Positions 38,187-58,724 of a stretch of DNA of 64,000 nt are shown here, in pieces. Positions within the stretch are counted from its first letter, which is position 1. Each line of letters opens with the position of its first letter. The stretch is from contig CAZBCL010000001.1 of the NCBI GenBank assembly GCA_964490645.1, positions 7,659-71,658 on the forward strand, given 5' to 3'. Source of the stretch: an uncultured Spirochaetia bacterium (GTDB taxonomy: Bacteria > Spirochaetota > JAHITG01 > CAZBCL01). The notes beneath the pieces were generated by a model that ran no database searches, was not told the origin of the DNA, and saw only the letters and a program-made list of their open reading frames with translations. The translations under genes were made by a program, and so were the position numbers.

Positions 38187-39074
38187 TTAGTCCATTTTTT
38201 CAATACGAATTTGATTTATTTGTTCTGAAATTAAGCCGAGCAAAAATATCAGAATTGATGTTATAAATAAGGTCAATGTTGTATTGGTAATTGAACTGGA
38301 TAAATAAAAGACTCGCCATAAACCATGTCCGATACTTCCCAACAAAATCAAAATAGATATTGGCAAAAATATTTTCATTGGACTATATAAGGTAATAATT
38401 CTCAGCATAATAAGAATAAACTTTACCCCGTCATGAAATGGACGTATTTTACTTTTTCCGACACGTCGATCAACAAATATCGGCTCATACCGCACCGCAT
38501 AACCGGCACGAATAACGGTTAGTGTAATTGTCGTCGGATATGAAAATCCATTGGGCAGTAATGAAACAAATTTTATAACAATAGCACGTTTGAAAATACG
38601 AAACCCCGAGGTAAGATCAACAATTTTTCTATTCGTTAAGTATGTAGCAAGCATATTATATATGCTGTTTGCAAAGTTTCGATGTAATGAAGCACGTTTT
38701 TTTGATTTTTTCATGCGAGCGCCGACAACCATGTCATATTCCGGAAGATAACGCACCAGACGAATAATATCATTCGGGTCATGCTGCCCATCACTATCCA
38801 TAAGTGCAACAAATTCACCGCGGGCATTTCGAATACCGGTTTTCACCGCAGCTCCGTTACCCATGTTATACGCATGATTAATAATGCGAATACCCTGTAT
38901 TTTTTTTAGTACAGCAGTCGTCCCATCATCACTGCCGTCATTTACAATGATAATTTCAGCGGCTTTTTTATATTTTTTAAGGGCTGTTTTAAGTTTCGTT
39001 ATTACTGTGCCGACAATTTCTTTTTCATTGTATACCGGCATTATAATCGATAACATTATTTTTTTTGATGCCAT
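38187..39074 (-). CDS. GT2-family polyprenyl-phosphate glycosyltransferase (DPM1/GtrB-like) with C-terminal TM helices
   Basis: IIMPVYNE…IIIVNDGSDDGT…DSDGQHDP catalytic motifs (DxD and DGS). C-terminal hydrophobic segments. 295 aa. Confidence 0.75.
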   Translation of the reverse strand: MASKKIMLSIIMPVYNEKEIVGTVITKLKTALKKYKKAAEIIIVNDGSDDGTTAVLKKIQGIRIINHAYNMGNGAAVKTGIRNARGEFVALMDSDGQHDPNDIIRLVRYLPEYDMVVGARMKKSKKRASLHRNFANSIYNMLATYLTNRKIVDLTSGFRIFKRAIVIKFVSLLPNGFSYPTTITLTVIRAGYAVRYEPIFVDRRVGKSKIRPFHDGVKFILIMLRIITLYSPMKIFLPISILILLGSIGHGLWRVFYLSSSITNTTLTLFITSILIFLLGLISEQINQIRIEKMD

Positions 39075-40090
39075 AAACCGAGTTCCTTTCGTATTGTATA
39101 ATCACGCCGTACTGATGCTGAATATACAATATACTCGGCAACCAACCCGGTACTAAACAATTGAATTCCAACAAGAATAAACAGAAGACTAATCATAATC
39201 ATCGGAAGACGCTGTCCGATTGTTACAACATCCCCCGGATCACCCCCCATACCAAGATTGAAGAGTGCTTTTGATACCAACCAGAGTGCTTTTGGCAAAT
39301 ATATATATATCCAATTAATAAAACCAAATAGAAAAAATACTATTCCGGTAACACCAAATAGTTTGATTGGTTTCTGACCAAATTTCCAAAGATACCACAG
39401 TGTCAATAAATCCATAAAACCCGGAATATATCGACGTACTCCGTATTTTGATTTTCCAACTGTCCGCGGATGATGTTTGACTTTAATTTCAGTAACACGA
39501 AATCCGCGCCAATGCGCCATTGCCGGAATAAAGCGATGGAAAGAACCGTATACATCAAGTTCTTTTACTACTTCTGTACGATATGCTTTCAACCCGCAGT
39601 TAAAATCATGAATTTTAACACCGGAAACAAAACTGACTGCACGATTAAATATTTTTGATGGAATTGTTTTTGTTATCGGGTCATATCGTTTATATTTCCA
39701 TCCCGATACCAAATCATAACCTTCATTAATTTTAGCAATGAGTCTTGAAATTTCATTCGGATCATCCTGTAAATCAGCATCCATGGTAATAATAATATCT
39801 CCGCGGGCATATTCAAATCCGCATGCCAAAGCTGCGGCTTTTCCAAAATTTCGCCGAAAGGTTATTGATACAACATGTTTCATATCGCGTTTATAGAGTT
39901 TTTCCACAACTGCCGCGCCATTATCCGTACTGCCATCATCAATAAAAATTATTTCATGAGGGAATCCGCCTTTTTGCAGATTACGTTTCACACTGTTATA
40001 AAGCTTCTGCAAAGTCCCTTCTTCATCAAGAAATGGAATCACAATTGAAATAAACGGTTTTTTATTTTTTTTTGTTTTACGTGCTTTCAT
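39056..40090 (-). CDS. GT2-family polyprenyl-phosphate glycosyltransferase (ArnC/GtrB-like) with C-terminal TM helices
   Basis: ISIVIPFLDEE…IFIDDGSTDNG…DADLQDDP motifs. Two C-terminal TM segments. Overlaps the downstream GT2 by 19 nt. Confidence 0.75.
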   Translation of the reverse strand: MKARKTKKNKKPFISIVIPFLDEEGTLQKLYNSVKRNLQKGGFPHEIIFIDDGSTDNGAAVVEKLYKRDMKHVVSITFRRNFGKAAALACGFEYARGDIIITMDADLQDDPNEISRLIAKINEGYDLVSGWKYKRYDPITKTIPSKIFNRAVSFVSGVKIHDFNCGLKAYRTEVVKELDVYGSFHRFIPAMAHWRGFRVTEIKVKHHPRTVGKSKYGVRRYIPGFMDLLTLWYLWKFGQKPIKLFGVTGIVFFLFGFINWIYIYLPKALWLVSKALFNLGMGGDPGDVVTIGQRLPMIMISLLFILVGIQLFSTGLVAEYIVYSASVRRDYTIRKELGLWHQKK

Positions 40091-40133
40091 ATAACTATTA
40101 TACTCTATTGGTTTTAATACAGCCCTGCCGGTA

Positions 40134-42431
40134 TTACAATCGTTTGAGTTCCCATTCAGCCGCCAAACGACTTTTTACATAACGATCACGATCCGGTGCA
40201 TACAGGTCATACCCTTCATTACCATGTTCAATAAGTTCTTGCAAGTATTTCCTTGCATTCGTTCTATCGCCAAGTTTTTTATAGGTCAGCGCTAAATAAT
40301 ATGTTGCTTCTTCCCACCATTTTGTTTTCCCCATACTACGAACCTGCTCAAAATAATTAATCCCTTTTTGTTGACTTGATTTATTATAGGTATACGCATA
40401 ATAATAAAATCCCTGATGAAATACCGCACCGGCACGCATATCCACAGACGGGGTGTTTTCTTCCGCGGCATGCGCAAAACAGCTTTTATACTCAGTCCGA
40501 TAGGTCTCAAGAATCGCATCATTCTTTTCGGTTCGAAGATGATACAGTGCTACCTGACCTTTAATGAAATTGTATTCCTGCCAGCCGTATTCATCTGAAG
40601 AAAATGACATTTTATTAATCCAGTACTCAGTATCATTATACTCTGCTTTTTTAACCCAGATAGAAAACTTTCGTAGTTCTGCTTCTTTTTTCGCATTACG
40701 GCGACCTGTCCAATTTATATTTTGACTTTCGACTTCTTTCGGCGCTTCGGTTGTTTCTGTTTCCGCAACCACTATTGGTTCAGATACCGTTTCCGTATCA
40801 GAGCTATCTATTGTATCGGATTCGGGTATATTTTCCGGTTCCGGTTCTGCAAACGCCGCCGGAACTACTGCAGATTCCGTATCCAAACTATTTGTTGCAT
40901 CGGATTCAGGTATATTTTCCGGTTCCGCTTCTGTAAGCGCTGCCGGTATTGCTGAAGATTCCGTATCTGTTGTATCTGCTGCTATGGATTCAGGAATGCT
41001 TGCCGGTTCCGGTTCTGCAAGCGCTGCCGGTACTGCTGAGGATTCCGTATTTGTAGTATCTGCTGCTGTAGATTCGGGAATGCTTGCAGGTTCCGGCATA
41101 ACAATCGGTATCGGTGAAGGTGGTTCCGAAACGCCATTCACTGCAATAACCGGTACTGCACCATATAAAATACTCATTCCTGATATATCAAATGCAGGAT
41201 TGATGTATCCCGCAATATCACTAACCATTTCTTTATCAGTAACCCAATTTTTATGCCCTTCCTGCATTCTGAAATTTACACTGCGTTGTACAGTGGTCGT
41301 ATATTCACCACGACTTTTCCCGGTAAAGCTTACCGTGTATTCTGCAGAACCAACATCCATCAACGGCGTTATTGACCATTGCGAAAATAAATATGATTGT
41401 CCGATAGAAAGACGATTTATGTCAATGGAGGATGCCGCGCCCTTTATTGCAGCCCCACCTGATGTTTCATTAATAGCAAGCGTTATTTTTTTCAGTGAGT
41501 TTTGCCCGGTGTTTTCAATCAAACCAACAACCTGCGCGCGATTACGATGCGTATCCTGTAAAGCGGTAACAAATCCATCAATGCCGAGATCACTTCCATC
41601 AAATGACGTTACCTCAAGAGCACCGATAAGAATTCGAATTGTTCCAATAGTTTTCGGTGCAAAGGTTTGCGGTTTCCAAAAATATGCAACACCGGAATCC
41701 GGTTCATCAAGACCTTTTCGGAATCCGCGTTTTGTATCGATAGCATAATCATAGTCTGCAACAAACATATTATCATAACCGGCAAACACTAATTTATCAG
41801 GCACGGTATCACTGAATACTCCCGCCGCCCAATACGATGCATTCGCTCCCGGACGATCAACCATCAGATACATATCCGGAACCCCCTCACCTTCAAAGCT
41901 TCTTTCCTTATCGAGCCGTTCAAGTGCACCCGGAATAAGAAAATTACCTTTATCGCTTTCTCCGAGTGTATCGAGAAGTATTCGCATGCCTATTTCATGG
42001 GCAGTTTCATCAAGATTAATAATTTGATACTCAATTGCAATCATTGTTTCATTTCCCGGTGATAGCGGATTATCTTCAAAAGAAATACGTTGTCCAACTG
42101 CAATGTTTTTATATTCCCATTGCGACACGATAGCTTTCCCGTCATCGCTCAATCGGGGAGCAACATTAAAGTCATTTACCGGTGAGGCATATTTTATTAC
42201 TTCACCATCAATTTTTATCTTTGCAAAACTGCGCGGCGGTGTGCTCGTATCAAGCACTACCAATCCGTCATCAGCAGGTGTGCTCATTGATCCAGATTTA
42301 GTAACAACACCGAATCGACCGGTTGATTCATTAACCAATACCTGAAACGATCCATTCTCAAGCGTTACATCAGCATAGGCAATAACCGCTATACTAAACA
42401 TACATACAAAGATTAGACTACTTACTTTCAT
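40134..42431 (-). CDS. large secreted protein with central acidic tandem repeats and C-terminal TPR-like region
   Basis: Signal peptide (MKVSSLIFVCMFSIAVIAYA). Three or more copies of a 28-aa repeat (PEPASIPESTAADTTNTESSAVPAALAE). C-terminal helical repeats (…YYLALTYKKLGDRTNARKYLQELIEHG…). Confidence 0.5.
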   Translation of the reverse strand: MKVSSLIFVCMFSIAVIAYADVTLENGSFQVLVNESTGRFGVVTKSGSMSTPADDGLVVLDTSTPPRSFAKIKIDGEVIKYASPVNDFNVAPRLSDDGKAIVSQWEYKNIAVGQRISFEDNPLSPGNETMIAIEYQIINLDETAHEIGMRILLDTLGESDKGNFLIPGALERLDKERSFEGEGVPDMYLMVDRPGANASYWAAGVFSDTVPDKLVFAGYDNMFVADYDYAIDTKRGFRKGLDEPDSGVAYFWKPQTFAPKTIGTIRILIGALEVTSFDGSDLGIDGFVTALQDTHRNRAQVVGLIENTGQNSLKKITLAINETSGGAAIKGAASSIDINRLSIGQSYLFSQWSITPLMDVGSAEYTVSFTGKSRGEYTTTVQRSVNFRMQEGHKNWVTDKEMVSDIAGYINPAFDISGMSILYGAVPVIAVNGVSEPPSPIPIVMPEPASIPESTAADTTNTESSAVPAALAEPEPASIPESIAADTTDTESSAIPAALTEAEPENIPESDATNSLDTESAVVPAAFAEPEPENIPESDTIDSSDTETVSEPIVVAETETTEAPKEVESQNINWTGRRNAKKEAELRKFSIWVKKAEYNDTEYWINKMSFSSDEYGWQEYNFIKGQVALYHLRTEKNDAILETYRTEYKSCFAHAAEENTPSVDMRAGAVFHQGFYYYAYTYNKSSQQKGINYFEQVRSMGKTKWWEEATYYLALTYKKLGDRTNARKYLQELIEHGNEGYDLYAPDRDRYVKSRLAAEWELKRL
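40791..41100. repeat. about 3.5 tandem copies of an 84-nt repeat inside the 40134..42431 CDS
   Basis: Unit ggattc(a/g)gg(t/a)at…ccggttccgg(t/c)tctg(c/t)aa(a/g)cgc(c/t)gccgg(a/t)a(c/t)tgc(a/t)ga(t/g)gattccgtat… repeated in phase, encoding the 28-aa acidic repeats. Reading the other strand produces the artefactual RFRFCKRRR ORF. Confidence 0.55.
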
Positions 42432-42611: not shown

Positions 42612-42646
42612 AATAACGGTTCAGGCATATACGTATACCTGAACCG
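42612..42646 (-). terminator. hairpin plus U-rich tract immediately 3' of rnpB
   Basis: On the minus strand: ACGGTTCAGG-tatacgtatatg-CCTGAACCGT followed by tattattat (10-bp perfect stem). Confidence 0.4.
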
Positions 42647-43008
42647 TAGTGAATACGGAGTATAAGCCGAATTCTGTCGTGGATCATCATTAATCTAGGA
42701 TGATTGTTGCCAATCACCTCATGCACCCTACCCGGGGTATCACGACGGGCAGCCGTGTATGTATAATACATATCCCCTGCTTGGGCTTGCTCCGAATGAG
42801 GTTTACCCTGCCGATGATGTTGCCATCAAAGCGGTGCGCTCTTACCGCACCATTTCACCCTTACCTGCAAAGCATAGGCGGTTTATTTTCTGCGGCACTG
42901 TCTGTAACGTGTGCACGTTCCCGGGAATTACCCGGCATCCTGCCCTGCGGAGTTCGGACTTTCCTCCATTATGTAATGTACATAACGGCGATGATCTCTC
43001 CGTATCCA
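42646..43008 (-). ncRNA. rnpB: RNase P RNA, bacterial type A
   Basis: The reverse complement shows the universally conserved elements: P4 5' strand GGAGGAAAGTCCGAACTCCGCAGGGCAGGATGCCGGGTAA; GGTAAGGGTGAAATGGTGCGGTAAGAGCGCACCG; GGTAAACCTCATTCGGAGCAAGCCCAAGCAGGGG; CCCGGGTAGGGTGCATGAGG; and the 3' CTAGATTAATGATGATCCACGACAGAATTCGGCTTATA. P1 pairing runs GGATACGGAG/CTCCGTATTC, and P3 is the hairpin TTATGTACATTACATAA. Confidence 0.88.
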
Positions 43009-43215: not shown

Positions 43216-45201
43216 ATGACAGAAAAAAAACCACTTATACGTTTGTTTTCATATATCCGTGGACATATCCCACGGCTTATTGCGACCGTCTTTATTATCA
43301 TGCTTATTGGCACTTTTGAAGGAATCACGGTTATCGGAATTGAACGCATTGCATATGTTTTTGAAAAAGTCGGTCAGCAGGTTCAAAACCATACCCGTCC
43401 TGAAATTAATCTTCGTTTTGTTCTGCCGAAACCGTCCCCCCCGCATATTCCGGGACTTGATAATGATAGTGCGCCCCCCCCCTCAACCAATAGCTTTTCT
43501 ACTGATGTACAAACTGCTATTGCCATAATGGATGAAAAAGTTTCCGCTATGATTGGTCCGAAACCGGAAATATTGAAGTTTTCATTTCGACCGGTGCCCA
43601 CGTTTAATGCTATCGGCAAAAAGAATGTTATTTCCATGCTGTTTATTATTGCAGGCTTTTTATTAATTGTCTTTTTTATTAAAAACTTTTTTTGGTACGG
43701 CAAGGATTATTTATCCCAATCGGTTGGTCATAAAATACTCCGCACTATCCGCAAGCAATTACATGATAAATTAATCACCTTACCGATGCGTTTTTTTGAT
43801 GCAACAAAAACCGGCGAGCTGCAATCACGCATTACCAATGATGTACAGACAGTGCAAAATATTATTGTAACCATAACAAACTTTTCGACAAATATTCTTA
43901 AAAGTCTTATTTATTTCGGATTAATGCTTTCGTTTTCCATTGAATTATCAATTATCGCCATTGCAATGGCGCTTGTTTTTGTACCGGTAATCAATCGCTT
44001 TGCAAAACCGCTTCGACGTGCAAATCAGAAAGTACTCGAAAATATTGGAGATGTTACCAGTTATTTGCAGGAAACCATTCTCGGTATTAAAGTGCTTAAA
44101 ATTTTTAATAAGGAAACCGATGAACGAGAGTTCTTCCATCAACTTACCTATAGTACCTATGCCCGTTCAATGCGCACTGTACGATTGAATGCAATACAAC
44201 AGCCGCTTGTACAGTTCATCGGAGAATTTGCTATTGTTACCCTTCTTGCTTTAACCGGCTACCTTATTATATCAAGTGATATGACAATATCACGGCTTAT
44301 TGGTTTTGTTAGTTGTGTAACACTTGGTTTCCAGCCCTTACAACAGCTTGGAAAAGTAAATACCGCGCTGCAAAGCGCCGGCAGTGCCAGTACGAGATTT
44401 TTTGAGTTAATGGATATGGAGCCCGAAAAAAATGTTATCGGTACTCCGCATATTCCTGAAACAATTTACGGTCATATACAATTTGAGAATGTCAGCTTCA
44501 GTTATGATAATCAAAACACTATTCTCAGCAATATTTCAATTAATGCCAACCCCGATCAAATCATTGCCATTGTCGGTCCAAGTGGTTCCGGAAAAACAAC
44601 TCTGGTCAATCTTATTCCCCGATTTTATGAAATCAGTCATGGCACGATAACCCTTGACGGGTGTGATATTCGCAGCATTCCTCTAACGACATTGCGCAAA
44701 TACATCGCTCTTGTTCCACAAGAAAGTATCTTATTCTCCGGAAGTATTGCCGATAATATTCGCTATGGTAAACTAAACGCTTCGGAATATGAATTAGCAA
44801 CTGCAGCGAAAGCCGCCAATGCACATAATTTCATTACCGCTCTTCCCAACGGATATGCAACAGAAATTGGCGAACGGGGGGTACAGCTTTCCGGAGGTCA
44901 ACAGCAACGTATCTCAATTGCGCGTGCAATATTAAAAGACCCGCGAATTCTTATTCTTGATGAAGCGACCAGTGCACTTGATACGGAATCAGAATTACTT
45001 GTCCAACAAGCGTTGAATAATCTTATGCAGGGTCGTACAACATTTGTGATTGCACACCGGCTTTCCACAATAAAACATGCGGATCGTATTATCGTTATTG
45101 ACGATGGTAAAAAAGTTCAGGAAGGAACACATACCGAACTGCTCCAACGTCCGGGATTGTATGCCGAATTGATTAAAAAACAATTTGTTTTGAACCAATA
45201 G
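43216..45201 (+). CDS. ABC transporter permease/ATPase fusion (MsbA-like type I exporter) with an enlarged TM1-TM2 periplasmic loop
   Basis: 6-TM domain plus NBD (Walker A GPSGSGKTT, signature LSGGQQQRISIARA, Walker B ILILDEATSALD). Roughly 110-aa hydrophilic Pro-rich segment between TM1 and TM2 (…KPSPPHIPGLDNDSAPPPSTNSF…). Confidence 0.85.
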   Translation: MTEKKPLIRLFSYIRGHIPRLIATVFIIMLIGTFEGITVIGIERIAYVFEKVGQQVQNHTRPEINLRFVLPKPSPPHIPGLDNDSAPPPSTNSFSTDVQTAIAIMDEKVSAMIGPKPEILKFSFRPVPTFNAIGKKNVISMLFIIAGFLLIVFFIKNFFWYGKDYLSQSVGHKILRTIRKQLHDKLITLPMRFFDATKTGELQSRITNDVQTVQNIIVTITNFSTNILKSLIYFGLMLSFSIELSIIAIAMALVFVPVINRFAKPLRRANQKVLENIGDVTSYLQETILGIKVLKIFNKETDEREFFHQLTYSTYARSMRTVRLNAIQQPLVQFIGEFAIVTLLALTGYLIISSDMTISRLIGFVSCVTLGFQPLQQLGKVNTALQSAGSASTRFFELMDMEPEKNVIGTPHIPETIYGHIQFENVSFSYDNQNTILSNISINANPDQIIAIVGPSGSGKTTLVNLIPRFYEISHGTITLDGCDIRSIPLTTLRKYIALVPQESILFSGSIADNIRYGKLNASEYELATAAKAANAHNFITALPNGYATEIGERGVQLSGGQQQRISIARAILKDPRILILDEATSALDTESELLVQQALNNLMQGRTTFVIAHRLSTIKHADRIIVIDDGKKVQEGTHTELLQRPGLYAELIKKQFVLNQ

Positions 45202-45239: not shown

Positions 45240-46226
45240 ATGCGTGTCGTAAAACGTAAAGAAAAGTTAAACCTGCTGATTACCGGTGCTGCCGGTTATT
45301 TTGCATCACGGTATATACAATCAGTACTCCGCGATCCTGATAATCGTCATAATATGATACTCATTGATGACCTCACGAACGCCGGCAGAGAATCTGTTCC
45401 GCAAGGAGCACCTTTTTTCCAAATCGGTTTAAATGATCGTCGTAAAATGACTGAACTTTTTCTTGATTATCAATTTGACGCAGTGATCCACTTCGCCGGA
45501 TATGCGGATGGACAGAATTCTTTTGCTGATCCGGTATATGATGCAATGAAAAATGTCCTCGGATCACTCAACTTGCTTGAACAATGTAAAGAACAGCAAG
45601 TCCCGAAATTTATTTATATTTCAACAACTGATGTATACGGGTTAACCCATAAAGCCGTTACTGACAGTTCCTGGCCACATCCGATATCACCGCATGCTGC
45701 ATCAAAATTCGCCATTGAACAATATCTGCCCATTTATCAGCAAAATTATGATATGGATTTTTGGGTTTTACGATTTGGCTCATTGTACGGATATGGCCAG
45801 CAAAAAAATGATTCCGTTATTGCTTCAATCATGTATCAGATCCTCACTGAAAAGCACGTCTCTCTCTTTGGCAATGATGAAACAAAATATGATTTATTAT
45901 TTATTGATGATGCTATTTTTGCCGTTAATCTTGCACTCTTTACCGAGCAGCCGCATATCTTTATTGGCGATCGTTCATTACATGTTATAAATATTGTCAG
46001 CGGTGAGTCAGTCTCCAGTACTGTTCTCTATCAAAAAATTGCACAATATATGGACTGCTCGATCATACCAACATACACAGAATCCAAACATCCAATTCCA
46101 TCAAGAGATATTGACAATAATTGGGCGCGAACTATTCTCGGATGGAAACCGAATGTTACGCTTGATGACGGTATACTCAGAACCCTTGAATGGATTCGAC
46201 AGCATGCGGTAAAGAAAGAAAAATGA
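45240..46226 (+). CDS. NAD-dependent epimerase/dehydratase (extended SDR) with non-canonical active site
   Basis: Rossmann motif ITGAAGYFAS and GalE-like layout. The YxxxK motif reads PHAASK (His at the catalytic Tyr position, codon CAT 45693-45695). Confidence 0.7.
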   Translation: MRVVKRKEKLNLLITGAAGYFASRYIQSVLRDPDNRHNMILIDDLTNAGRESVPQGAPFFQIGLNDRRKMTELFLDYQFDAVIHFAGYADGQNSFADPVYDAMKNVLGSLNLLEQCKEQQVPKFIYISTTDVYGLTHKAVTDSSWPHPISPHAASKFAIEQYLPIYQQNYDMDFWVLRFGSLYGYGQQKNDSVIASIMYQILTEKHVSLFGNDETKYDLLFIDDAIFAVNLALFTEQPHIFIGDRSLHVINIVSGESVSSTVLYQKIAQYMDCSIIPTYTESKHPIPSRDIDNNWARTILGWKPNVTLDDGILRTLEWIRQHAVKKEK

Positions 46227-46245: not shown

Positions 46246-47040
46246 ATGAATATTCAATTTGAAGACTTACATATCCATAGTCATATCAGTGATGATGCAT
46301 ACGGATCCATGCTTGAAAAAGCAGAAAAAGCACTCCAGTATGGATTTACGGCAATCGGATTTGCCGATCATTTAGAGATTAATTCCAACTGGGGATATGA
46401 TGTTGAAGAATACTTCAACGCTCTGAATGAAGTACGTCGTGTATTTGATAAACGCCTGCATATTTACAGCTCTGTTGAAATCGGCTTCACTGATAAACGA
46501 CTTCCACTCATACAAGAGCATTTACAACACTATCAGTATGATTATGTCATTGGATCAATTCATGCGATCAACGGCATTATCGCATCTGAAATGAAATCCG
46601 CGTATACCTCCCACGAACACATTATGAACATGTACCAACAATATTTTGATATGATTTATAAAACCGTTGCTTGTGGTCTTTTTGATATCATTGCACATAT
46701 AAACTTTATACGCCGCTGGATTCCCGAGGAGTTTCAAGCAATAGAGGTTTGGCATATTCCCGCCTTATCTCATCGCCTTGATATGATACTTGATCTTATT
46801 ATTGAAAAGAAAAGCATTCTTGAAATCAATTGCGCTTCATTGCGGAAAGGATATTCCTATACTCTTCCTGAAGAAGAAATTATCGCACGCTATGCGCAAC
46901 GCGGCGGCACATTAGTTTCCTATGCATCCGATACGCATATACCGGATGATATCGGAACGGGTATTGAAGTATATAGCTCTCTTCTCGCGCGCTATAATCT
47001 TACTTCATACTCCCCCCGCTCAATACCGGCGCGATTATGA
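46246..47040 (+). CDS. PHP-domain metal-dependent phosphoesterase (HisJ-like)
   Basis: N-terminal LHIHSHISDD His-cluster, ADHLE, and later His/Asp ligands (GSIHAING…IAHINF). 264 aa. Confidence 0.6.
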   Translation: MNIQFEDLHIHSHISDDAYGSMLEKAEKALQYGFTAIGFADHLEINSNWGYDVEEYFNALNEVRRVFDKRLHIYSSVEIGFTDKRLPLIQEHLQHYQYDYVIGSIHAINGIIASEMKSAYTSHEHIMNMYQQYFDMIYKTVACGLFDIIAHINFIRRWIPEEFQAIEVWHIPALSHRLDMILDLIIEKKSILEINCASLRKGYSYTLPEEEIIARYAQRGGTLVSYASDTHIPDDIGTGIEVYSSLLARYNLTSYSPRSIPARL

Positions 47041-49579: not shown

Positions 49580-51139
49580 TTATACGTTCCCCTGATCGTC
49601 TTTTTTTATATCCGCAACAGTATGCTGTGCGGTATGGTCATAATCCTTCAAATGCCCGAATAGTGATCGCAGTCCGTATAATGCCTGCTTTATATCATCC
49701 CACGAGCGCAGAGTAAAAAACGATTTAATAATAAAAAGCGGATGCAGCATAATACGCCACATTTTCCGACACCAATAGGTTGTATCAACATCTGTTTTCA
49801 TAACCGCTTCTGCCTGATCAAAGCGGTCATAATTATGCGCATCAATACAAAAATAATCATTACGCAATGCATACCGATACAACGGCGTCCCCGGATAGGG
49901 CAACACAACACTTGATTGCAATGAATCCCCAAATTTTGTTCGATACAGCATCATTTCCTTTGTTGCCAGCCATGTTTTCCGTGCTCCTTCACGAGTTTCC
50001 CACGGATAGCCAACCATCGTCGTCAGCAACACTACCATACCATGACGTTTTGCACGTTTCACCCCGTCAATTATTTCTTCGATCGTTTCATCCTTTTGTA
50101 ATCGCACTAAGGTTTCATTACTGCCGGATTCAACACCGATTTTTAACAATCGTGTCCCAATACGTTCACAGAGCGTACACATTTCCTCATCAAGGTTATC
50201 ACCCCGAGCATTCGTTGAGAAGGCAACCTTACCGTATAAACCGCGGCTTTCAAATTCATCAGCGAACGCCCGCATCCATTCTTTATTCCATACGGGACCG
50301 TCTTCATTATCATCAAACACTTCGACAACACCATACTTCTTATAGAGCATTTCAATTTCATCAACAACATCCTTAACCGGGCGCATACGAGCGGTATTCC
50401 GCCAGAAAGAATGCTGCCAAATACAAAATGTACAGCGCCCTGCCAGTGTCGAACCATATTTTTCTTTTTTTGCTTTGCTGCCGTCAATAGGATTTCGCCC
50501 CCCGCATCCGCGTCCGGTTAAAATATACGCACAGGGATGCTGCAAATATGCTTCACCGTAATTATACCATTGTGTTAAATCGCGATCAATTTGCGGTGAT
50601 GTTGAGAGATCATATAATGCTGCGCAGCCGGTTGTCTGCATAGCGTTGTTTTCAAACCAATACACGCCGCCGGGACGCGCAGAACGTGATCCGGTTTCAA
50701 ATTCCAATAATTCCGATATAATAAAATCATAATCCCCTCCGACAATAACATAGTCAGGGTTTGAACGCTCAAAGTTTTCTTCAGTTTTATACCATAAATG
50801 ATCACCAACTAATATCAGCCGAGCATCAGTTTGTTTCTTTAATTTCGGGATATAATCCCAATGCATGGTAATCAAGGGAGTTTTCGTTTCCATTACAATC
50901 CAATCAGGATTAAATGAACGTAAACGGTTCTCATAATCATCCCACTGAATACGTGCATTGATCGCATCAAGCCAGAGGACCTCATGTCCTTGTTTTTTTA
51001 ACATGGTTGCCAGATATGCCATCACCAATGGAAAAATACGAACTTCCAGTGATTTACTAAACTTTGTCTGCCGATTCTGTGATAATAACGGAAACGCATT
51101 ATCACGCATAAAAGGCGGGTAGATAAGAGCAATTTTCAT
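49580..51139 (-). CDS. B12-binding (class B) radical SAM enzyme with a roughly 20-aa insertion inside the cluster-binding Cys motif
   Basis: N-terminal B12-binding-like region (MKIALIYPPF…VLWLDA). The Cys motif reads GRGC-GGRNPIDGSKAKKEKYGSTLAGR-CTFC (Cx23Cx2C) at 50423-50506, confirmed by translating the DNA. Confidence 0.65.
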   Translation of the reverse strand: MKIALIYPPFMRDNAFPLLSQNRQTKFSKSLEVRIFPLVMAYLATMLKKQGHEVLWLDAINARIQWDDYENRLRSFNPDWIVMETKTPLITMHWDYIPKLKKQTDARLILVGDHLWYKTEENFERSNPDYVIVGGDYDFIISELLEFETGSRSARPGGVYWFENNAMQTTGCAALYDLSTSPQIDRDLTQWYNYGEAYLQHPCAYILTGRGCGGRNPIDGSKAKKEKYGSTLAGRCTFCIWQHSFWRNTARMRPVKDVVDEIEMLYKKYGVVEVFDDNEDGPVWNKEWMRAFADEFESRGLYGKVAFSTNARGDNLDEEMCTLCERIGTRLLKIGVESGSNETLVRLQKDETIEEIIDGVKRAKRHGMVVLLTTMVGYPWETREGARKTWLATKEMMLYRTKFGDSLQSSVVLPYPGTPLYRYALRNDYFCIDAHNYDRFDQAEAVMKTDVDTTYWCRKMWRIMLHPLFIIKSFFTLRSWDDIKQALYGLRSLFGHLKDYDHTAQHTVADIKKDDQGNV

Positions 51140-51147
51140 GGGCTTTC

Positions 51148-53211
51148 CTAAATAAATCGTTCCAGTGCAGTATATCCGACTGCAGCTAATAATACGGCAA
51201 TAAGTGTTAATCCGGTATTCACCACCCCATCACCAAGCATAACTTTCTTTCCCCATCGTGCACCAATGTAGCTTTCAGCAAATACCGCACCATGGACAGC
51301 AAGTAAAACAATTAATGCTGCTATTATATCATTGCCATAAAAATAATTACGTATAACTGCAACAGCAAGAATAATTCCTATTACGATTAAACCGCCAAAC
51401 ATTCCATCAGCAGAAAGCGCCCCTTCCTGTTCACCGGCACATGGCCGTAATCTGTATGCACTGATATAAATATGATCATGACGAATTCCTAATCGGCCGA
51501 TACGCCCCTGTGCAAAATCAAGTAATGCTGCTCCGAATGCTGCAATAAATAAAAACCGTACATATGAAATAGAAACATTAAAAACACTCATCGCGCTTAA
51601 AAACAATGGAATTACCATATAGGCGGAAAACCGATGAAGATTACCGACATGATAATCAGCACCATGTGTTGTCGAACGTAAAAGCGCCAATCCTTTCAGT
51701 TTGAGGACTCCCTTTACAAACGCATTGATAATCATAATAAACAAGTTTACCGTATGAATACCATAGGCAATAAAAATCGCACAATACCACGGTTGATTAA
51801 ACCGTCCATTCTCTTCTTCAAACACACCGCGATCAATTATATTCATCGCGACATACATCAGGGTAAACATCCCCCAACCGCGTCGTCCGATTCCATGAAG
51901 AATAATAATATTAATTATATATAAACCCAGCAGTCGCCGCAATGACACCATATCATATAAAAAATATAACAATAACAATGCCGGAATCCAAAGCACGATA
52001 TGCACCAATTCCGGAGATGGTACATCAAATATCGGACGCATTAATGACGCTGCTAATGCACCAATAAAACCGACCAATGTTAAATGAACAACATCACTGA
52101 CGCCTTTAAACGGTATACTAAATAAAATGATAATCAGAAGTGTACTCATACATGCATACAGACAATGAAATGCTGCCACATCAGGCAGTATTTTTGTATA
52201 TAAGGTTCTGTATTTCATCCGTACCGGCGAGTACGATACATGCGAAGACGTTTTTGTATTCCCCGTATCCGGCATGCTTGCTGAATCAGCAGTCTGTTGA
52301 GAAGTATTAGGTGTTTTGGTTTTTTGTACAGCACGGGGAGTTAATATATGACTATATTTATGAAATAACCATGTACAATAAGCGACATTATAAAATGCAG
52401 GCTGCCCTTTTCCTTCATCAAACGCCTGCGGCGGTGTTCGTCCGGCATAAACACTATACCCCTGCACACCATTTGCGGATAAATACGGTGCATATACTTT
52501 TAACGGCAGTAACAGCATCCCAATAAATAATACACTGAATAGTATAACAGCGAACAATACCTGTTTTCGTTTTATTACAATATTCTGATGAGCAATACGG
52601 GCTGAAAATAATCGTCCCCCCGTATCCGGCAATATCCGAAAAACAAACCATCCGACTGTACTAACCATAAGAGCAGTAAAAAAAACAAGTGCCGGAACAA
52701 ATAATGCAGTACCCGCCATGATTACTGAATAAGATAATGAAAAGTTTGAAAACCACGCATCACTCTCGCGTGAAGTATTAATCCGTCCTGACTGAATCAA
52801 CGACAATATAACAACATTAAGTTGTGCGACTATTATTAATAGCAATATGCTGAAGCGTATTTCTTTGATAACATCAAGTGTTGTTTTCGCTAGAGCAAAT
52901 AAAAATCTATTCTGCAGTGTAGCGGCACTTTTTTCCAACGCTGTATGCCAGTGCGGATTAAACAAATATACGACAATACCTGCACCTGCTATGACTAAAC
53001 TAATATGTATTACTAAATAAATCGTCTCCCTTTTTAAAAAAGTCTTCGTTAGGATTTTACGTCGTGTACGAATTAAAATGACATGCGTTATACCAACAGC
53101 AATGGTTAATATCGCCGTCATAACCGGTGGCCCAACAAGCACATTCAGCAGCGGCAGCATATATAAAAGCCACCATATCTGAAATTTTTTATGTACAGGT
53201 CTATCGAGCAT
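51148..53211 (-). CDS. large polytopic integral membrane protein of unknown function
   Basis: 687 aa, more than 14 predicted TM segments, with a central hydrophilic Ser/Thr-rich loop (…KTPNTSQQTADSASMPDTGNTKTSSHVSY…). 11-nt overlap with the downstream gene. Confidence 0.45.
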   Translation of the reverse strand: MLDRPVHKKFQIWWLLYMLPLLNVLVGPPVMTAILTIAVGITHVILIRTRRKILTKTFLKRETIYLVIHISLVIAGAGIVVYLFNPHWHTALEKSAATLQNRFLFALAKTTLDVIKEIRFSILLLIIVAQLNVVILSLIQSGRINTSRESDAWFSNFSLSYSVIMAGTALFVPALVFFTALMVSTVGWFVFRILPDTGGRLFSARIAHQNIVIKRKQVLFAVILFSVLFIGMLLLPLKVYAPYLSANGVQGYSVYAGRTPPQAFDEGKGQPAFYNVAYCTWLFHKYSHILTPRAVQKTKTPNTSQQTADSASMPDTGNTKTSSHVSYSPVRMKYRTLYTKILPDVAAFHCLYACMSTLLIIILFSIPFKGVSDVVHLTLVGFIGALAASLMRPIFDVPSPELVHIVLWIPALLLLYFLYDMVSLRRLLGLYIINIIILHGIGRRGWGMFTLMYVAMNIIDRGVFEEENGRFNQPWYCAIFIAYGIHTVNLFIMIINAFVKGVLKLKGLALLRSTTHGADYHVGNLHRFSAYMVIPLFLSAMSVFNVSISYVRFLFIAAFGAALLDFAQGRIGRLGIRHDHIYISAYRLRPCAGEQEGALSADGMFGGLIVIGIILAVAVIRNYFYGNDIIAALIVLLAVHGAVFAESYIGARWGKKVMLGDGVVNTGLTLIAVLLAAVGYTALERFI

Positions 53212-54346
53212 TTTTTTCCTTATATAATAAAAGCAGTCCGCCTAACAATGAGACGAACACCAATGCGACATGACTGATAAACATAATTAAAATACCATTT
53301 ACTTCACTGATGCCAAAATGCGTCAGCACTGATTTTCCGATAAATTCACGCACCCCAATCCCATTCACCGATATCGGCGGCGCCGAGGTAAATCCGACAA
53401 TTGGAATAACAAAGAAAAAACTACGCAATTCAATAGATTGAATAAATAACGCCCGTGCAACTAAATAATTCATCAGTATACGAACCCCCTGACTTGCCAG
53501 ACTCATTAATCCTATCTGAGCAAGAAACCGCTTTTTACGAAACAGATACATTGATTGTATAAACTTTATAACAACACTCTTTAATTTCCCTTTTTTCAAT
53601 AATCCTGCAAGTGCCATAAACCACTTCTTACTCGGACCGATTAAATAAACAATCCCCCCGATACACGTCATCGCCGCAATACCAAATATCAATACGCTCC
53701 ATTTCTCAACAACCGGTGTATCCCAATATAATAAGCATGAAACAACTATTAAAATAAGCCCGAGACTGCAAAAATGAAATACGCGGTCAACGATAATACC
53801 GGCAGCAATTGTCTCCCCATGATGTTTTTTACGCCCTAACATAACACCTTTAACTAAATCCCCCCCTATTGAACCGGGAAGAACATTATTAAAAAATAAT
53901 CCAATAAAATAATAGCGTATTCCATCCCACAGCGTAACCTTAATTTTACTAAACCGCAGTAATAAAAACCATTGTACTGATGCAATAAGCATGGAAATAA
54001 AATAAACGAATACGCCGATAAAAAACAGTCCGAAATCAAACCGTTCCAAACGTAGTGCAATTAAATCAATACCGCGTATTCGATATACTGTTTCCGGATC
54101 TCCGGCATCAGTATTCCGCGTTATTACTTCGTATTTAATTGTTTCAGTATCTATTCGTTCCTGCAGTGTCGGCCAGTCATCTTTAATACTGTCAGCATTA
54201 ATTTCTTCTTTATTATCAATAATACCAAACCAGACCACAACAATCATTGCAGCAATACTTACGGTAAATTGTACTACCGTCCAGAACATACGTTTTTTAT
54301 TATTATTCCGCTTTGTCATAAGACATTTCCGTATATGAAATAACAT
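53201..54346 (-). CDS. flippase-like TM-domain protein (UPF0104 / LPG-synthase-TM family)
   Basis: Roughly 8 TM segments. Conserved C-terminal motif of the family (PISVNGIGVREFIG). 381 aa. Confidence 0.5.
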   Translation of the reverse strand: MLFHIRKCLMTKRNNNKKRMFWTVVQFTVSIAAMIVVVWFGIIDNKEEINADSIKDDWPTLQERIDTETIKYEVITRNTDAGDPETVYRIRGIDLIALRLERFDFGLFFIGVFVYFISMLIASVQWFLLLRFSKIKVTLWDGIRYYFIGLFFNNVLPGSIGGDLVKGVMLGRKKHHGETIAAGIIVDRVFHFCSLGLILIVVSCLLYWDTPVVEKWSVLIFGIAAMTCIGGIVYLIGPSKKWFMALAGLLKKGKLKSVVIKFIQSMYLFRKKRFLAQIGLMSLASQGVRILMNYLVARALFIQSIELRSFFFVIPIVGFTSAPPISVNGIGVREFIGKSVLTHFGISEVNGILIMFISHVALVFVSLLGGLLLLYKEKNAR

Positions 54347-54424
54347 TGATCGTATACATAGAACGGTATTATATCAAACGAATAAAATGCTGTAAAGAAT
54401 ACGAATTACAAATATAAGCATCTA

Positions 54425-55627
54425 TTATTGAATCGGTTTTTCATATGCACGGAAAGTCATCCATACACCGGTACTAAACGGTTCAACCCCCCGCCGCATC
54501 GGTATATTTGATTCTAATATCCATGACAGCTCACCTTCTTTGATATTGTGTTTTTTCCCTGCTTCATATAATTTTTCAATTAACGGAGCTTCCAACCCGC
54601 GTTTTTGAAATTTCTTTTTAATGCCCATGAGCAGACAACGACTGCGATTGTAGCTTTTCGCAACCTTGAGCCCCCAGAGTAATTTAATAATACCAAACGG
54701 GAGAAGCCGTCCGTTAATTTTTGACTGCACTTCATTCAGATCGGGCAGTGCCATAATAAAGCCGGCAACTTCATTATTCACAAAGACAAACCAAATAAAA
54801 TCCTCTTCAACCAGCATTTTTAAGTCTTTGCCTTCATGATCAAACTCTTCTTTTGTCCATGCAACCGTCCCCCAATTTGTTTCCCATGCATCACAATGAA
54901 TTTCCCAAACATATTCTATTAATTCATCCCATTGCTTCAGATCACCGCGTCGGTATTCTATCCGGCCGGATTTACGTTCAAGCCGCTGTTCAACCAATCG
55001 TGCAACACGCCGAACACGATCCGATATTCCTTTTTCCATATCAAGATGATATGAATATAAATCCTGTGCTTTGGTCATTGCATACTGCGTACATAATTCA
55101 TTATAATACGGCGGGTTATGCGGCATCATAACCATCGGCATTATCTCATATCCCGCCGGATAATCCGCCCCCCCATCGCATTTCATACCAAAGGTATCAT
55201 TGATGGTAAAACTATATGGTCCGAGCATTCGTTTCATCCCTTTTTGTTTTAACCAATCCTGCGCACGATTGAATAATGCCTCCGCAACCGCCTGATCATT
55301 AATACATTCAAACCATCCCCAAAATCCGGTACTATCATTAAATGTTTCAAGATGACCATGGTATATTTGTGCGGTAATACGACCAACGACTTCACCATCG
55401 CGTTCAGCAATAAATGCCTGAAAATCAATGCGTTTTAATTTGACATTTATCTTAGTATTAAACTTATCCATTACATCAATAATCAGTGGCGGACACCATG
55501 CTTTCGCCCATGGTTTTGCACGGTTCTCTTTCGAGCGATAAATTTTCCATGGAAATAATACAAACTTCTTTTTAAACACGCCGGGGGTTGCCATACGATC
55601 AATAGGGATAATGTTAATGTTGCTCAT
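54425..55627 (-). CDS. hypothetical protein, possible dual GNAT-fold acyl/aminoacyl-transferase
   Basis: 400 aa soluble protein. The C-terminal region has a GNAT motif-A-like segment (KKKFQKRGLEAPLIEKLYEAG) and a VAGFIMALPD beta-strand. Assignment is tentative. Confidence 0.3.
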   Translation of the reverse strand: MSNINIIPIDRMATPGVFKKKFVLFPWKIYRSKENRAKPWAKAWCPPLIIDVMDKFNTKINVKLKRIDFQAFIAERDGEVVGRITAQIYHGHLETFNDSTGFWGWFECINDQAVAEALFNRAQDWLKQKGMKRMLGPYSFTINDTFGMKCDGGADYPAGYEIMPMVMMPHNPPYYNELCTQYAMTKAQDLYSYHLDMEKGISDRVRRVARLVEQRLERKSGRIEYRRGDLKQWDELIEYVWEIHCDAWETNWGTVAWTKEEFDHEGKDLKMLVEEDFIWFVFVNNEVAGFIMALPDLNEVQSKINGRLLPFGIIKLLWGLKVAKSYNRSRCLLMGIKKKFQKRGLEAPLIEKLYEAGKKHNIKEGELSWILESNIPMRRGVEPFSTGVWMTFRAYEKPIQ

Positions 55628-55702: not shown

Positions 55703-56890
55703 TTAAATAATACCGAGTTTTTTCCCAAATGTTTTAAATGTATCCAGCAAATAATCAAGCTGCTCATCAGTATGATTCGCCATATAACTGGTCCGAATAA
55801 GACAGCGTCCTTCCGGTACGCCGGGCGGAACAACCGGATTAATAAAAACCCCGGCTTCGGAAAGCGCTTTTGATAATTCAAATGTTTTTTCCAGTGGTCC
55901 GATGACAAGCGGAATAATCGGAGTTTCTGCCGTACCGGTTTCATAACCAAGCATTTTAAATTCATTAAGCATACGATGAGTAATTTCCCATAAGCGTTCA
56001 ATCCGTTCAGGTTCTTTCAGCATAATATCCAACGCAGCATCAACCGCAGCAACACTTGCCGGCGGCATTGAAGCACTAAAAATAAGCGCCCGACTTCTAT
56101 GCTTTAAATATTCAATGATATTCTTTGAGCCGGCAACAAAACCGCCTAATGAAGCAAATGACTTGCTGAATGTCCCCATAATAAGACTAACTTCGGTATC
56201 CAAACCGAAATGATTCGCGGTTCCGCGTCCGTTTTTCCCAAGAACCCCCAATGAATGAGCGTCATCAACATAAACATATGTATTATTAAATTTCTTTGCA
56301 AGTGCAACAATTTCAGGAAGTTTCGCAATATCACCTTCCATTGAGAATACGCCGTCAACAACAATAAGCTTACCGGCTTCTTCGGGAGCGTTTTTCAACT
56401 TCATTTCAAGGTCGGTCATATCATTATGCTTAAAGCGCCACGTTTTACCAAATGCAAGGCGCGTTGCATCAATGATTGAGGCATGGTCAAGAGCATCAAT
56501 GAGTATATAATCTTTCGGACCGATAACCGGAGCAATAGCACCAAGATTTGATTGAAACCCGGTTGAAAATAAAAGCGCATCTTCCTGATGTGTAAACTCA
56601 GCTAAACGCTGCTCAAGCTTTTCATGAATATCAAGTGTCCCGTTTAAAAATCGTGACCCGGCATTCCCGGTGCCATATTTTTCAATCGCTTTAATTGCCG
56701 CTTCTTTTACCCGCGGATCATTGGTTAATCCGAGATAACTGTTTGATCCGAACATAAGGTATTTTTTACCGTCAATATATACTTCAGTATCCTGTTCCGA
56801 TTCAATTGGTCGAAAATACGGATAGATTCCTATTTGACGAAGCTCCTCGGCTTGTGTAAACTCACGACATTTATCCCAAAGATCTGGCAT
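55703..56890 (-). CDS. PLP-dependent alpha-oxoamine synthase, serine-palmitoyltransferase-like
   Basis: Fold-type I AOS family: HASIIDA, DDAHSLGVLG, and PLP-lysine motif GTFSKSFASLGGFVAG (the TFSKS form is typical of Spt-like members rather than Kbl/BioF). Confidence 0.75.
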   Translation of the reverse strand: MPDLWDKCREFTQAEELRQIGIYPYFRPIESEQDTEVYIDGKKYLMFGSNSYLGLTNDPRVKEAAIKAIEKYGTGNAGSRFLNGTLDIHEKLEQRLAEFTHQEDALLFSTGFQSNLGAIAPVIGPKDYILIDALDHASIIDATRLAFGKTWRFKHNDMTDLEMKLKNAPEEAGKLIVVDGVFSMEGDIAKLPEIVALAKKFNNTYVYVDDAHSLGVLGKNGRGTANHFGLDTEVSLIMGTFSKSFASLGGFVAGSKNIIEYLKHRSRALIFSASMPPASVAAVDAALDIMLKEPERIERLWEITHRMLNEFKMLGYETGTAETPIIPLVIGPLEKTFELSKALSEAGVFINPVVPPGVPEGRCLIRTSYMANHTDEQLDYLLDTFKTFGKKLGII

Positions 56891-56955
56891 TGGAAACTCC
56901 TTATTAATGATTCACTTAAAAGAAACTCTTCTTTTTATACAATTGATTCACTCGG

Positions 56956-57963
56956 TTATTGTTCAACAATGGTTTCGTCAATTGCAATACCAAAATGACG
57001 TGCTTGTTTTTCAACATATCCCAGCACTTTAGAACCACAGCGAAGTTGTACAACCGATATTGGTTCACCTTTTGGTGTTGTTAAGCGTATTGTTTCAGCA
57101 TTCTGCAACACGATTGAACACGGCATTTTTGAACGAACCTCAACCGCATCAACAACTAATAGCGGACGCTTCTCAACTTTTGAACGTCCGACATATGCCG
57201 TTATTGATTTTCCGGTATGATCGGTAATTAAAACAGGATCACCGGATTTTAATTCGCCAAGATACCGCGTCGTGCCGCCCGGCGCATGAAAATATGCATG
57301 TACCGCGCCCGCATTTATCCGAAACGGACGTGCAGCGACATACGGGTTGTCAATATTTTCTGCATGAACAAGAAACATCCCCTTACTTGAATTGCCAACC
57401 AGCATCCCCTGACTACCCGTTAAATTTGAACAGGTGTCAACACAAACACGATCGCCAATTCCGATTGTTGTTACTTTTGTAATACGTAATGTTTTCAGGT
57501 TAAATTTCATTGCTGATAATGACGTAATAAATGAAACTGATTTTTTTATTATTGCCGGATCAGTCGTTTCTAACACAATCCCTGCAACACCGGTTTCAAG
57601 AATTTCTGCAGCTAATTTTACGTCTTTATACGTCCGTGCAAATGTGTACAAGGTTTCTCCGGCTGCTGCAATAAGATTCTCTAACGGAATAATACTCCAG
57701 TCGGTTGTACGTACAACAACGATTTTTTTTCGTAAAACCCGTGCAGCTTCCTGTTCATCTTTTTTATTTTTTATTACACGAATATCAACATCCGTAGGAA
57801 TTTTTAAATCGCCGGATGATGGCGCAATAACCGTAATACGACCAAGCTGGCGAACTTTTGACACCAGCTCTTTCGTCGTCATTATTGCATCAATACCGGA
57901 TTCTAACGCTGTGGTAACTGCTTTTTTATTCCATATCGGCAGATTCAGCCAAATTTTCTTCAT
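56956..57963 (-). CDS. 3-dehydroquinate synthase II (archaeal-type AroB')
   Basis: 335 aa. N-terminal [28 protein letters not shown]… resembles the DHQS-II (PF01959) family. Overlaps the upstream DhnA-type aldolase by 4 nt. Confidence 0.55.
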
Positions 57964-58724
57964 GTATTCTCTCCATGAACAATATCAGCAATCATGCGTA
58001 CTATTTCCTTCACATTATCATGCTGAAAAACATTGCGTCCGATTGAACATCCTGCCCCACCGGCTGCAATAGCACTTTTAATCATTGTCAATAATTCCTC
58101 GTCAGTTTCCATTTTCTCACCGCCGGCAATAACCACCGGAATAGGACAGCCCTCAACTACTTCACGAAATGATTCAGTTGAACCCGTATAATTAACTTTT
58201 ACAATATCCGCACCAAGCTCTGCACCAACACGTGCAGCATGTTTCACAACAGCGGCATCATATTCATTTTTAATTTTTTTGCCGCGTGTATACATCATCG
58301 CAATAAGCGGCATCCCCCACATCATACACGATCGGCTGACTTTCCCCATATCATGAAGCATTTCAGCTTCAGTATCAGCACCAAGATTCACATGTACTGA
58401 TACTGCATCAGCTCCTAAGCAAACCGCTTCTTCAACTGAACACACCATTGTTTTCGCATTCGGGTCACCCGACAATGAAGTACTGGCTGATAAATGAACA
58501 ATAAGACCAATATCACGCCCATGATTACGATGCCCGCTTTTCACCAGCCCTTTATGCATAAGAATTGCATTGACGCCGCTATTTGCAATGGTATCAACAG
58601 TATTTTGAATATCAATTAAACCGTGAATCGGACCAAGCGTAACCCCGTGATCAATGGGGACAATAATCGTCCGGTTATTATTTCGATTTAAAATACGTTC
58701 AATACGTATTTCTTTACCTATCAT
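57960..58724 (-). CDS. DhnA-type class I aldolase, likely 2-amino-3,7-dideoxy-D-threo-hept-6-ulosonate synthase (AroA')
   Basis: 254 aa with DeoC/LacD-family motifs ([13 protein letters not shown]…, [20 protein letters not shown]). Pairing with the DHQS-II gene favours AroA' over a glycolytic FBA. Confidence 0.55.

Follow-up and report, generated by a model that had tools for sequence, protein, structure and literature searches.

A known type of ceramide gene pair probably lies beside independent envelope operons in an uncultured Spirochaetia bacterium

The stretch of DNA considered here (the window, 64,000 nt) comes from contig CAZBCL010000001.1 of an uncultured Spirochaetia bacterium (assembly GCA_964490645.1), and the interval studied within it, 38187-58724, carries protein-coding genes labelled g01 to g15. 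The window belongs to a 330-kb metagenome contig (ENA ERZ27262693). Among them are a Spt-like alpha-oxoamine synthase (AOS; Spt, serine palmitoyltransferase), a GNAT-like N-acyltransferase, two radical SAM enzymes, glycosyltransferases, membrane proteins and an ABC exporter, and the original prediction took the whole interval for one undescribed lipid pathway. This view was not borne out. The interval is probably composed of a known type of ceramide gene pair standing beside independent envelope operons, and not of one new lipid pathway: the gene set was co-conserved in none of 85 loci anchored on Spt or GNAT homologs and in none of 83 loci anchored on the family of one of the radical SAM genes, g09. 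The inventory itself, based on the list of open reading frames (ORFs) and on Pfam and NCBIfam scans of the window proteins, held up well. All 13 gene types listed earlier were found where they had been placed, and the tight packing with overlaps of 4-19 nt was confirmed (overlaps of 19, 4, 8, 11, and 4 nt). Three genes inside the interval had been overlooked, namely an RNase P RNA gene and two aromatic amino-acid genes.

The AOS is encoded by g13 (55703..56890, minus strand; 395 aa), with the PLP lysine in the predicted TFSKS motif. Its best match among the NCBIfam AOS models is the Bacteroidota-type serine palmitoyltransferase (SerpalmtaseCFB, NF047600) with 589.2 bits, followed by Kbl (407), BioF (400), and ALAS (246). 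Among solved structures, the Spt of Sphingobacterium multivorum (3A2B/8GUH) comes first (463 bits, 56% identity), ahead of the Thermus BioF/Kbl enzyme (313 bits), Kbl (272), cysteate-C-fatty acyltransferase (246), and BioF (205). Because Spt leads both comparisons, g13 is, by sequence, Spt-like and not BioF or Kbl, and the question of its grouping with the latter two, raised by the original prediction, is answered in favor of Spt. The score lies under the curated Spt equivalog cutoff of 640 bits; the Kbl and BioF models are likewise under their own cutoffs. The nearest named relatives of the enzyme are found in metagenome-assembled genomes (MAGs) of Spirochaetes.

Next to the AOS gene lies g12 (54425..55627, minus strand), whose 400-aa product was predicted to be a GNAT-like N-acyltransferase (PF00583, 32.6 bits) and is a candidate bacterial ceramide synthase (bCerS). 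The similarity to GNAT and the conserved position beside the AOS gene were both recovered. A one-genome-per-species scan with g12 and two homologs returned 80 loci, which together with earlier Spt-anchored ones make up the 85 Spt/GNAT-anchored loci. A Spt homolog and the GNAT gene are both present in 60 of them, in the order AOS to GNAT without exception, and in 42 the two are immediate neighbors on the same strand, with the GNAT gene directly downstream and its product 31-42% identical to g12. The loci are spread over Myxococcota, Bacteroidota, Gemmatimonadota, Zixibacteria, Ignavibacteria, Nitrospirota, and other groups, and the genera include Myxococcus, Corallococcus, Pyxidicoccus, Chitinophaga, and Balneola. 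When neighboring genes of the 85 loci were clustered, the sole other frequent partner was a short-chain dehydrogenase/reductase (SDR) of 320 aa, present in 48 loci. Two less frequent partners were also seen: a PAP2_3 membrane protein in 14 loci (L065, 11536-12447, and 13 others) and a class IV (branched-chain) aminotransferase in 11 (L053, 4263-5183, and 10 others). The PAP2_3 superfamily includes sphingolipid head-group transferases, and the protein is possibly one of these. Neither a PAP2_3 gene nor this aminotransferase gene was found in the 64-kb window.

Bacterial ceramide synthesis genes were reportedly described by Stankeviciute et al. in 2022 and by Olea-Ozuna et al. In Caulobacter, Spt, bCerS, and the ceramide reductase CerR correspond to CC_1162, CC_1154, and CC_1164 (PMC11324152; PMC11334938). 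The window resembles this system in that a Spt-clade AOS has directly behind it a GNAT-like N-acyltransferase about 370-400 aa long, and the pair together with the SDR recurs in dozens of genomes, including those of myxobacteria. Judged by these likenesses, g13-g12 matches a known type of bacterial Spt/ceramide-synthase pair. However, the window differs from the described system in having no CerR-type SDR, dedicated acyl carrier protein (ACP), or acyl-ACP synthetase, and in its AOS, which belongs to the Bacteroidota type and narrowly misses the curated cutoff.

The original prediction had read Spt, the N-acyltransferase, and a local SDR together as the enzymatic logic of ceramide synthesis, and the part concerning the SDR fails. 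The SDR in question, g05 (45240..46226, plus strand), is a GalE-like extended SDR that has HxxxK instead of YxxxK. Its segment PHPISPHAASK aligns with PHPISPYGIAK of Thermotoga maritima GalE (4ZRM, 137 bits), which verifies the predicted replacement of the catalytic Tyr by His. When a profile built from the 48 Spt-associated SDRs was run against the whole window, only g05 was found, at 66 bits, whereas the Spt-associated SDRs score about 140-280 bits against one another in pairwise BLAST. Because nothing else matched the profile and g05 matched it at this score, the candidacy of g05 as ceramide reductase was rejected, and no CerR-type SDR is present in the 64 kb. A dedicated ACP or acyl-ACP synthetase was not found in the window either.

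The test of co-conservation, which the original prediction had itself proposed, gave negative results from both sides. Homologs of the radical SAM pair, the 687-aa membrane protein, the PHP phosphoesterase, and the ABC exporter are absent within 10 kb in all 85 Spt/GNAT-anchored loci. A distant homolog of the GT4 glycosyltransferase (21-23% identity) was found in two of them (L069 and L082), and an unrelated gene for a B12-type radical SAM enzyme (21-29% identity) also in two. In locus L003, such an enzyme (448 aa, 29% identical to g08) and a 398-aa protein of no recognized kind are encoded at 5147-7693, 1.3 kb upstream of an SDR-spt-GNAT run, with an HTH gene and small ORFs in between; the proximity is probably coincidental. 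Conversely, none of the 83 loci anchored on the g09 family contains Spt, the GNAT protein, the ABC exporter, or the 687-aa protein. The closest relatives of the window's Spt (66-72% AOS identity; loci L002, L007, L087, L090, L176, and L177) also show arrangements that differ from that of the window, for example spt, a GGDEF cyclase gene, an uncharacterized gene, and the GNAT gene, or spt, the GNAT gene, and an M20 peptidase gene. A gene for a HAMP-GGDEF diguanylate cyclase and one for a protein that is roughly 350 aa long and matches no Pfam family stand between spt and the GNAT gene in L007 (3507-8833), L087 (10001-15227), and L177 (10001-15257), and in L176 (10001-14114) spt, the GGDEF gene, and the uncharacterized gene run alike. 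These arrangements hint that the regulation of sphingolipid synthesis is linked to c-di-GMP in the lineage of these Spt relatives. The locus of one close relative also contains a flagellin gene.

The radical SAM genes turned out to have a context of their own. The first of them, g09 (49580..51139, minus strand), encodes a 519-aa protein with an N-terminal B12-like Rossmann domain and a radical SAM domain (PF04055, 50.7 bits) with the cysteine arrangement Cx23Cx2C; its score for the B12-binding domain (PF02310) is 28.2 bits, under the cutoff of 32.1. The second, g08 (48133..49575, minus strand), encodes a 480-aa protein with the canonical CxxxCxxC motif (CPYGCQFC) and is BchE/HpnJ-like over its full length. 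Of the earlier description of the two as class B (B12) radical SAM enzymes, the Rossmann plus radical SAM architecture stood for both, and the canonical motif is not present in g09; cobalamin binding by g09 and g08 is predicted from domain architecture. The likening of the pair to lipid-acting families was not supported, as the two fall short of the cutoff for each curated family of this kind. The best NCBIfam matches of g08 are BchE (178.6 bits) and HpnJ (176.4 bits), and the AprD4 model gives 114 bits, all far under the cutoffs, and HpnJ is the top match of g09 (106 bits) and the second, after BchE, of g08, against a cutoff of 578. The HpnR model gives 92 bits for g08 and 50 for g09 (cutoff 650), the ladderane-type model TIGR04072 gives 112 and 63 (cutoff 360), and the AprD4 model gives 46 bits for g09 (cutoff 500 for both proteins).

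More than 1200 relatives of g09 with 48-64% identity were found in Kiritimatiellia, Spirochaetes, Poribacteria, Chloroflexi, several candidate phyla, and DPANN archaea. The family, examined in g09 and in loci L092-L175, shares the invariant motif GRGCG..CxFCxWQ, with 9-27 residues between the first two cysteines (Cx9-27Cx2C). An AF2 model of g09 (pLDDT 87.6) finds its best fold match in AprD4 (6FD2; Foldseek E 7e-24, TM 0.68-0.79), followed by MgmA, OxsB, and TsrM. AprD4 is a sugar 1,2-diol dehydratase in which the B12 domain is present and B12 is not used, and MgmA is a protein glutamine methylase. Like AprD4, g09 combines an N-terminal B12-like Rossmann domain with a radical SAM barrel, and the substrate of AprD4 is a sugar; unlike it, g09 shares only 16-17% identity with this enzyme and stands in no aminoglycoside gene cluster. 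The predicted structure of g09 is thus of the Rossmann plus radical SAM type and compatible with a carbohydrate substrate.

In the 83 g09-family loci, an ortholog of g08 (42-58% identity) lies downstream of the g09 ortholog on the same strand in 19 cases, or in 14 of the 48 with enough flanking sequence. GT2 glycosyltransferase genes occur within 6 kb of g09-family genes in 38 of the 83 loci, and other neighbors include UXS-like SDRs (18 loci), M23 peptidases (14), GT4-like glycosyltransferases (10), GFO/IDH/MocA oxidoreductases (9), and DUF362 proteins (9). In the 71%-GC locus L096, the large ORFs that precede the radical SAM genes were dismissed as antisense artefacts. The pair g09/g08 is a conserved two-gene cassette with its own context, uncharacterized, and it never occurs with Spt in the 83 loci. 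A search of the literature found no described radical SAM family with GT2 or flippase-like partners. Among the closest described systems is the hopanoid side-chain module, consisting of the GT2 HpnI, the deacetylase HpnK, the B12-type radical SAM enzyme HpnJ, which carries out a ring contraction, and the LPG_synthase_TM protein HpnL; the archaeal calditol synthase Cds is treated in the same review (PMC13459092). A Rossmann plus radical SAM enzyme with a GT2 and a flippase-like LPG_synthase_TM protein is common to both, and the context in locus L094 (radical SAM gene, polysaccharide deacetylase gene, GT2 gene) resembles the module. So does that in a further locus, L093, with a polytopic protein, the radical SAM enzyme, a patatin, and an LPG_synthase_TM protein. 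The hopanoid module differs, however, in that g09 and g08 are far under the HpnJ cutoff, no hopanoid genes are nearby, the g09 family is found in DPANN archaea and candidate phyla, and g09 has the Cx(n)Cx2C arrangement.

In the window, the cassette forms the end of a four-gene operon whose first gene, g11 (53201..54346, minus strand), encodes a 381-aa LPG_synthase_TM/flippase-like membrane protein (PF03706, 110.8 bits; TIGR00374, 43.8 bits). The predicted likeness to the transmembrane part of MprF was recovered for this domain alone: g11 shares LPG_synthase_TM with MprF and, unlike MprF, has no C-terminal aminoacyl-phosphatidylglycerol synthase domain. The second gene, g10 (51148..53211, minus strand), shares 11 nt with g11, stops 8 nt short of g09, and encodes the predicted 687-aa polytopic membrane protein, with about 14 transmembrane (TM) segments and no Pfam or NCBIfam match. 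It is an orphan. A word-index search of 5.8e9 clusters and an exhaustive phmmer search of 1.84e9 representatives each returned only g10 itself, a look-up of P0242, a 99%-identical variant of g10, gave no match, and comparison by hhalign with the positionally equivalent polytopic proteins beside g09 orthologs gave probabilities of at most 1.2%. The single-sequence AF2 model of g10 (pLDDT 43.8) was unusable. Since its codon usage is native to the window, and in the annotated frame alone, g10 is a real gene. Along g11/g10/g09/g08 the junctions measure -11, 8, and 4 nt. Of all sigma-70-like sites in the 20-kb scan, the best one (54396..54368; 11 of 12 matches) falls in the 78 nt that separate g12 from g11, and it consists of TTTACA, a 17-nt spacer, and a TG-extended TATAAT.

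Beyond the cassette, the plus-strand operon g04 to g07 is convergent with g08. It begins with g04 (43216..45201), a type I ABC exporter half-transporter (PF00664, 135.7 bits; PF00005, 111.3 bits) whose best NCBIfam match is MsbA (TIGR02203, 506.4 bits, matching from residue 136). The predicted MsbA-like character and long periplasmic loop (110 aa in the prediction) were both found, with about 90-95 extra residues between TM1 and TM2. In contrast to MsbA, g04 is under the equivalog cutoffs (602 bits for TIGR02203; 415 against 867 for PRK11176), carries this insert, and stands in an operon with SDR, PHP, and GT4 genes rather than with lpxK. Downstream of the SDR gene g05 follow g06 (46246..47040), the predicted PHP-domain phosphoesterase (PF02811, 71.4 bits), and g07 (47037..48140), the last gene of the operon and the predicted GT4 glycosyltransferase (PF00534, 121.8 bits; PF13439, 63.2 bits), for which no curated NCBIfam equivalog was reached. 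The membership of g06 in the HisJ family had not been noticed before; it passes the cutoff of the HisJ-family histidinol-phosphatase model (TIGR01856, 120.9 against 90.2 bits).

One of the three overlooked genes splits the interval. The class A RNase P RNA gene rnpB (42647..43007, minus strand; RF00010, 298.8 bits), a housekeeping gene, is directly followed by a terminator-like hairpin with a 14-bp stem (42647..42616), and both separate the exporter operon from the genes g03 to g01. The first of these, g03 (40134..42431, minus strand), encodes the predicted secreted repeat/TPR protein of 765 aa, with an N-terminal hydrophobic segment and C-terminal TPR (TPR_6, 22.8 bits); an 84-nt repeat of 3.6 copies (40791-41096) encodes an acidic 28-aa unit rich in Pro, Glu, Ser, and Thr. 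The two predicted polyprenyl-phosphate-type GT2 transferases with C-terminal TM segments, g02 (39056..40090) and g01 (38187..39074), both on the minus strand and overlapping by 19 nt, reach 118 and 120 bits with PF00535; g02 is ArnC-like (178 bits), and g01 matches the AglJ model with 110 bits. At the other end of the interval, g14 and g15 (56956..58724, minus strand) encode 3-dehydroquinate synthase II (NF002627, 429.7 bits, cutoff 392) and ADH synthase (TIGR01949, 368.7 bits, cutoff 299), both passing their cutoffs. They provide the alternative entry to the shikimate pathway and are genes of aromatic amino-acid synthesis, not lipid genes.

Taken as a whole, the interval of this uncultured diderm bacterium is probably a mosaic of at least five independent units of transcription or function. 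The first unit, g13-g12, would be the conserved bacterial sphingolipid core, in which g13 would join serine (or alanine) to an acyl thioester, yielding a 3-keto long-chain base for g12 to N-acylate. The family identity of the pair comes from the comparisons above, and its chemistry is suggested by analogy with the Caulobacter pathway; the reducing step, assigned to a CerR-type SDR, would be encoded elsewhere in the genome. The second unit, g11-g10-g09-g08, is an operon of closely coupled genes preceded by a promoter-like site, in which radical chemistry (dehydration, ring contraction, or methylation) would act on the sugar of a membrane-anchored carrier or glycolipid, and radical modification of a membrane-anchored sugar or glycoconjugate is the most likely function that we infer for it. 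In the third unit, g04-g07, the exporter, the GalE-like SDR, the HisJ-family PHP phosphatase, and the GT4 would constitute an operon for glycoconjugate assembly and export. The fourth unit would comprise rnpB, then the secreted TPR protein, then the two polyprenyl-phosphate GT2 genes, and the fifth the two aromatic amino-acid genes. Since their functional categories co-occur in other loci, the second and third units may act together. A link of either of them to the ceramide genes is not supported.

The most serious competitor of this mosaic is the integrated pathway assumed at the outset, in which Spt and the N-acyltransferase would make ceramide, the GT4 and GT2 enzymes would glycosylate it, the radical SAM enzymes would modify it, the LPG_synthase_TM protein would flip it, and the MsbA-like transporter would export it, the product being a new radical-SAM-modified glycosphingolipid. 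Genes g13 to g08 are indeed tightly packed on one strand. The GC content and its third-position value (GC3) are uniform over all genes of the interval, so it is not a recent patchwork of foreign DNA, and its reading as a horizontal transfer island was rejected. The Caulobacter sphingolipid region also mixes genes of synthesis, head groups, and transport (PMC11324152), and the 2026 review of lipid-modifying radical SAM enzymes names none acting on sphingolipids, which makes the idea new and not contradicted (PMC13459092). Nevertheless, the set shows no co-conservation in either collection of loci, in the closest Spt relatives its place is taken by a GGDEF gene and an uncharacterized gene, g05 is not CerR, rnpB and the two aromatic amino-acid genes interrupt or flank the set, and the strong promoter-like site precedes g11. 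A pathway comprising the whole set is therefore considered unlikely.

It is worth noticing that several observations weigh against the mosaic and leave room for a more limited connection. The comparison covers relatives up to 72% AOS identity, and a functional fusion peculiar to one lineage would escape synteny analysis. No NCBIfam model matches g12, whose identity as bCerS is that of a candidate drawn from synteny. The 11 genes from g18, outside the interval, to g08 share a strand, are spaced 4-78 nt apart, and show no convincing terminator, and transcription may read through from spt into the radical SAM operon; promoter-like sites are not enriched in the sequence either (62 found, 71.6 expected in shuffled sequence). 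In L007, a second Spirochaetia genome (a MAG), an LPG_synthase_TM gene adjoins spt, after waaA and lpxK, and in L176 one lies 6 kb from spt, so the flippase-like gene may be linked to sphingolipid genes. As a general partner, this gene was found within 10 kb in two of the 87 Spt-anchored loci fetched, the two just named, and in about three of the 83 radical SAM loci, a recurrence too rare to decide either way. A lineage-specific joining of spt/bCerS to the flippase, orphan, and radical SAM operon, in which the AprD4/HpnJ-like pair would remodel the sphingolipid head group or chain, is regarded as doubtful; if true, radical SAM chemistry on sphingolipids would be known for the first time.

Still less probable is that the product of the AOS/GNAT pair is a different N-acylated amino lipid, such as a sulfonolipid, a capnine-type lipid, or one with a 1-deoxy or glycine-derived base, or that the AOS is a BioF or Kbl enzyme. 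The score of the AOS under the curated Spt cutoff and the lack of CerR in the window are consistent with this, the substrate specificity of an AOS is not readable from sequence, and Spt-like enzymes can take alanine to give 1-deoxy bases (PMC11334938). However, the structure of cysteate-C-fatty acyltransferase scores far below that of Spt (246 against 463 bits), and a sulfonolipid synthase was rejected on this ground; the Kbl and BioF models score below the Spt model and under their own cutoffs, the same gene pair with the SDR occurs in Myxococcus and its relatives, and PAP2_3 genes recur near the pair. It is about equally improbable that the radical SAM pair is unrelated to membrane lipids or glycans, modifies a peptide, a protein, or a cofactor, and stands here incidentally: MgmA and TsrM among the structural neighbors of g09, weak matches of g08 to methyltransferase models of ribosomally synthesized peptides (RiPPs), and the M23 peptidases beside the cassette would fit this, but the most frequent neighbors are GT2, UXS-like SDR, GT4, and GFO/IDH/MocA genes, the cassette is translationally coupled to two polytopic membrane proteins in the window, and no precursor-peptide-like or RiPP genes were seen.

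Two further groups of genes in the window were recorded outside the interval. At 28547-34174, a second candidate lipid-export cluster holds genes for a TetR regulator, an MMPL transporter of 913 aa, a LolA_like protein, and a 463-aa protein that matches no Pfam family. At 58729-63693, directly upstream of the aromatic amino-acid genes and spt and on the same strand, lie genes for a TPR lipoprotein-like protein, a 995-aa AsmA/YhdP-like protein, and a double cNMP-binding protein. AsmA-like proteins have been connected with the delivery of lipids to the outer membrane.

The mosaic of a ceramide pair and envelope operons carries a caution concerning adjacency, as tight packing on the same strand gave it the look of a single pathway. 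With g13-g12, a Spirochaete-related lineage would join the anaerobic bacteria with a sphingolipid capacity of the Spt/bCerS type. What is new in the interval is not a sphingolipid pathway; it is the uncharacterized radical SAM cassette and the orphan membrane protein, which could repay work on cell-envelope glycoconjugates. If the function suggested here for the g09/g08 cassette is correct, this pair, with its Cx(n)Cx2C member, would be a widespread and undescribed modifier of membrane-anchored sugars in bacteria and DPANN archaea.

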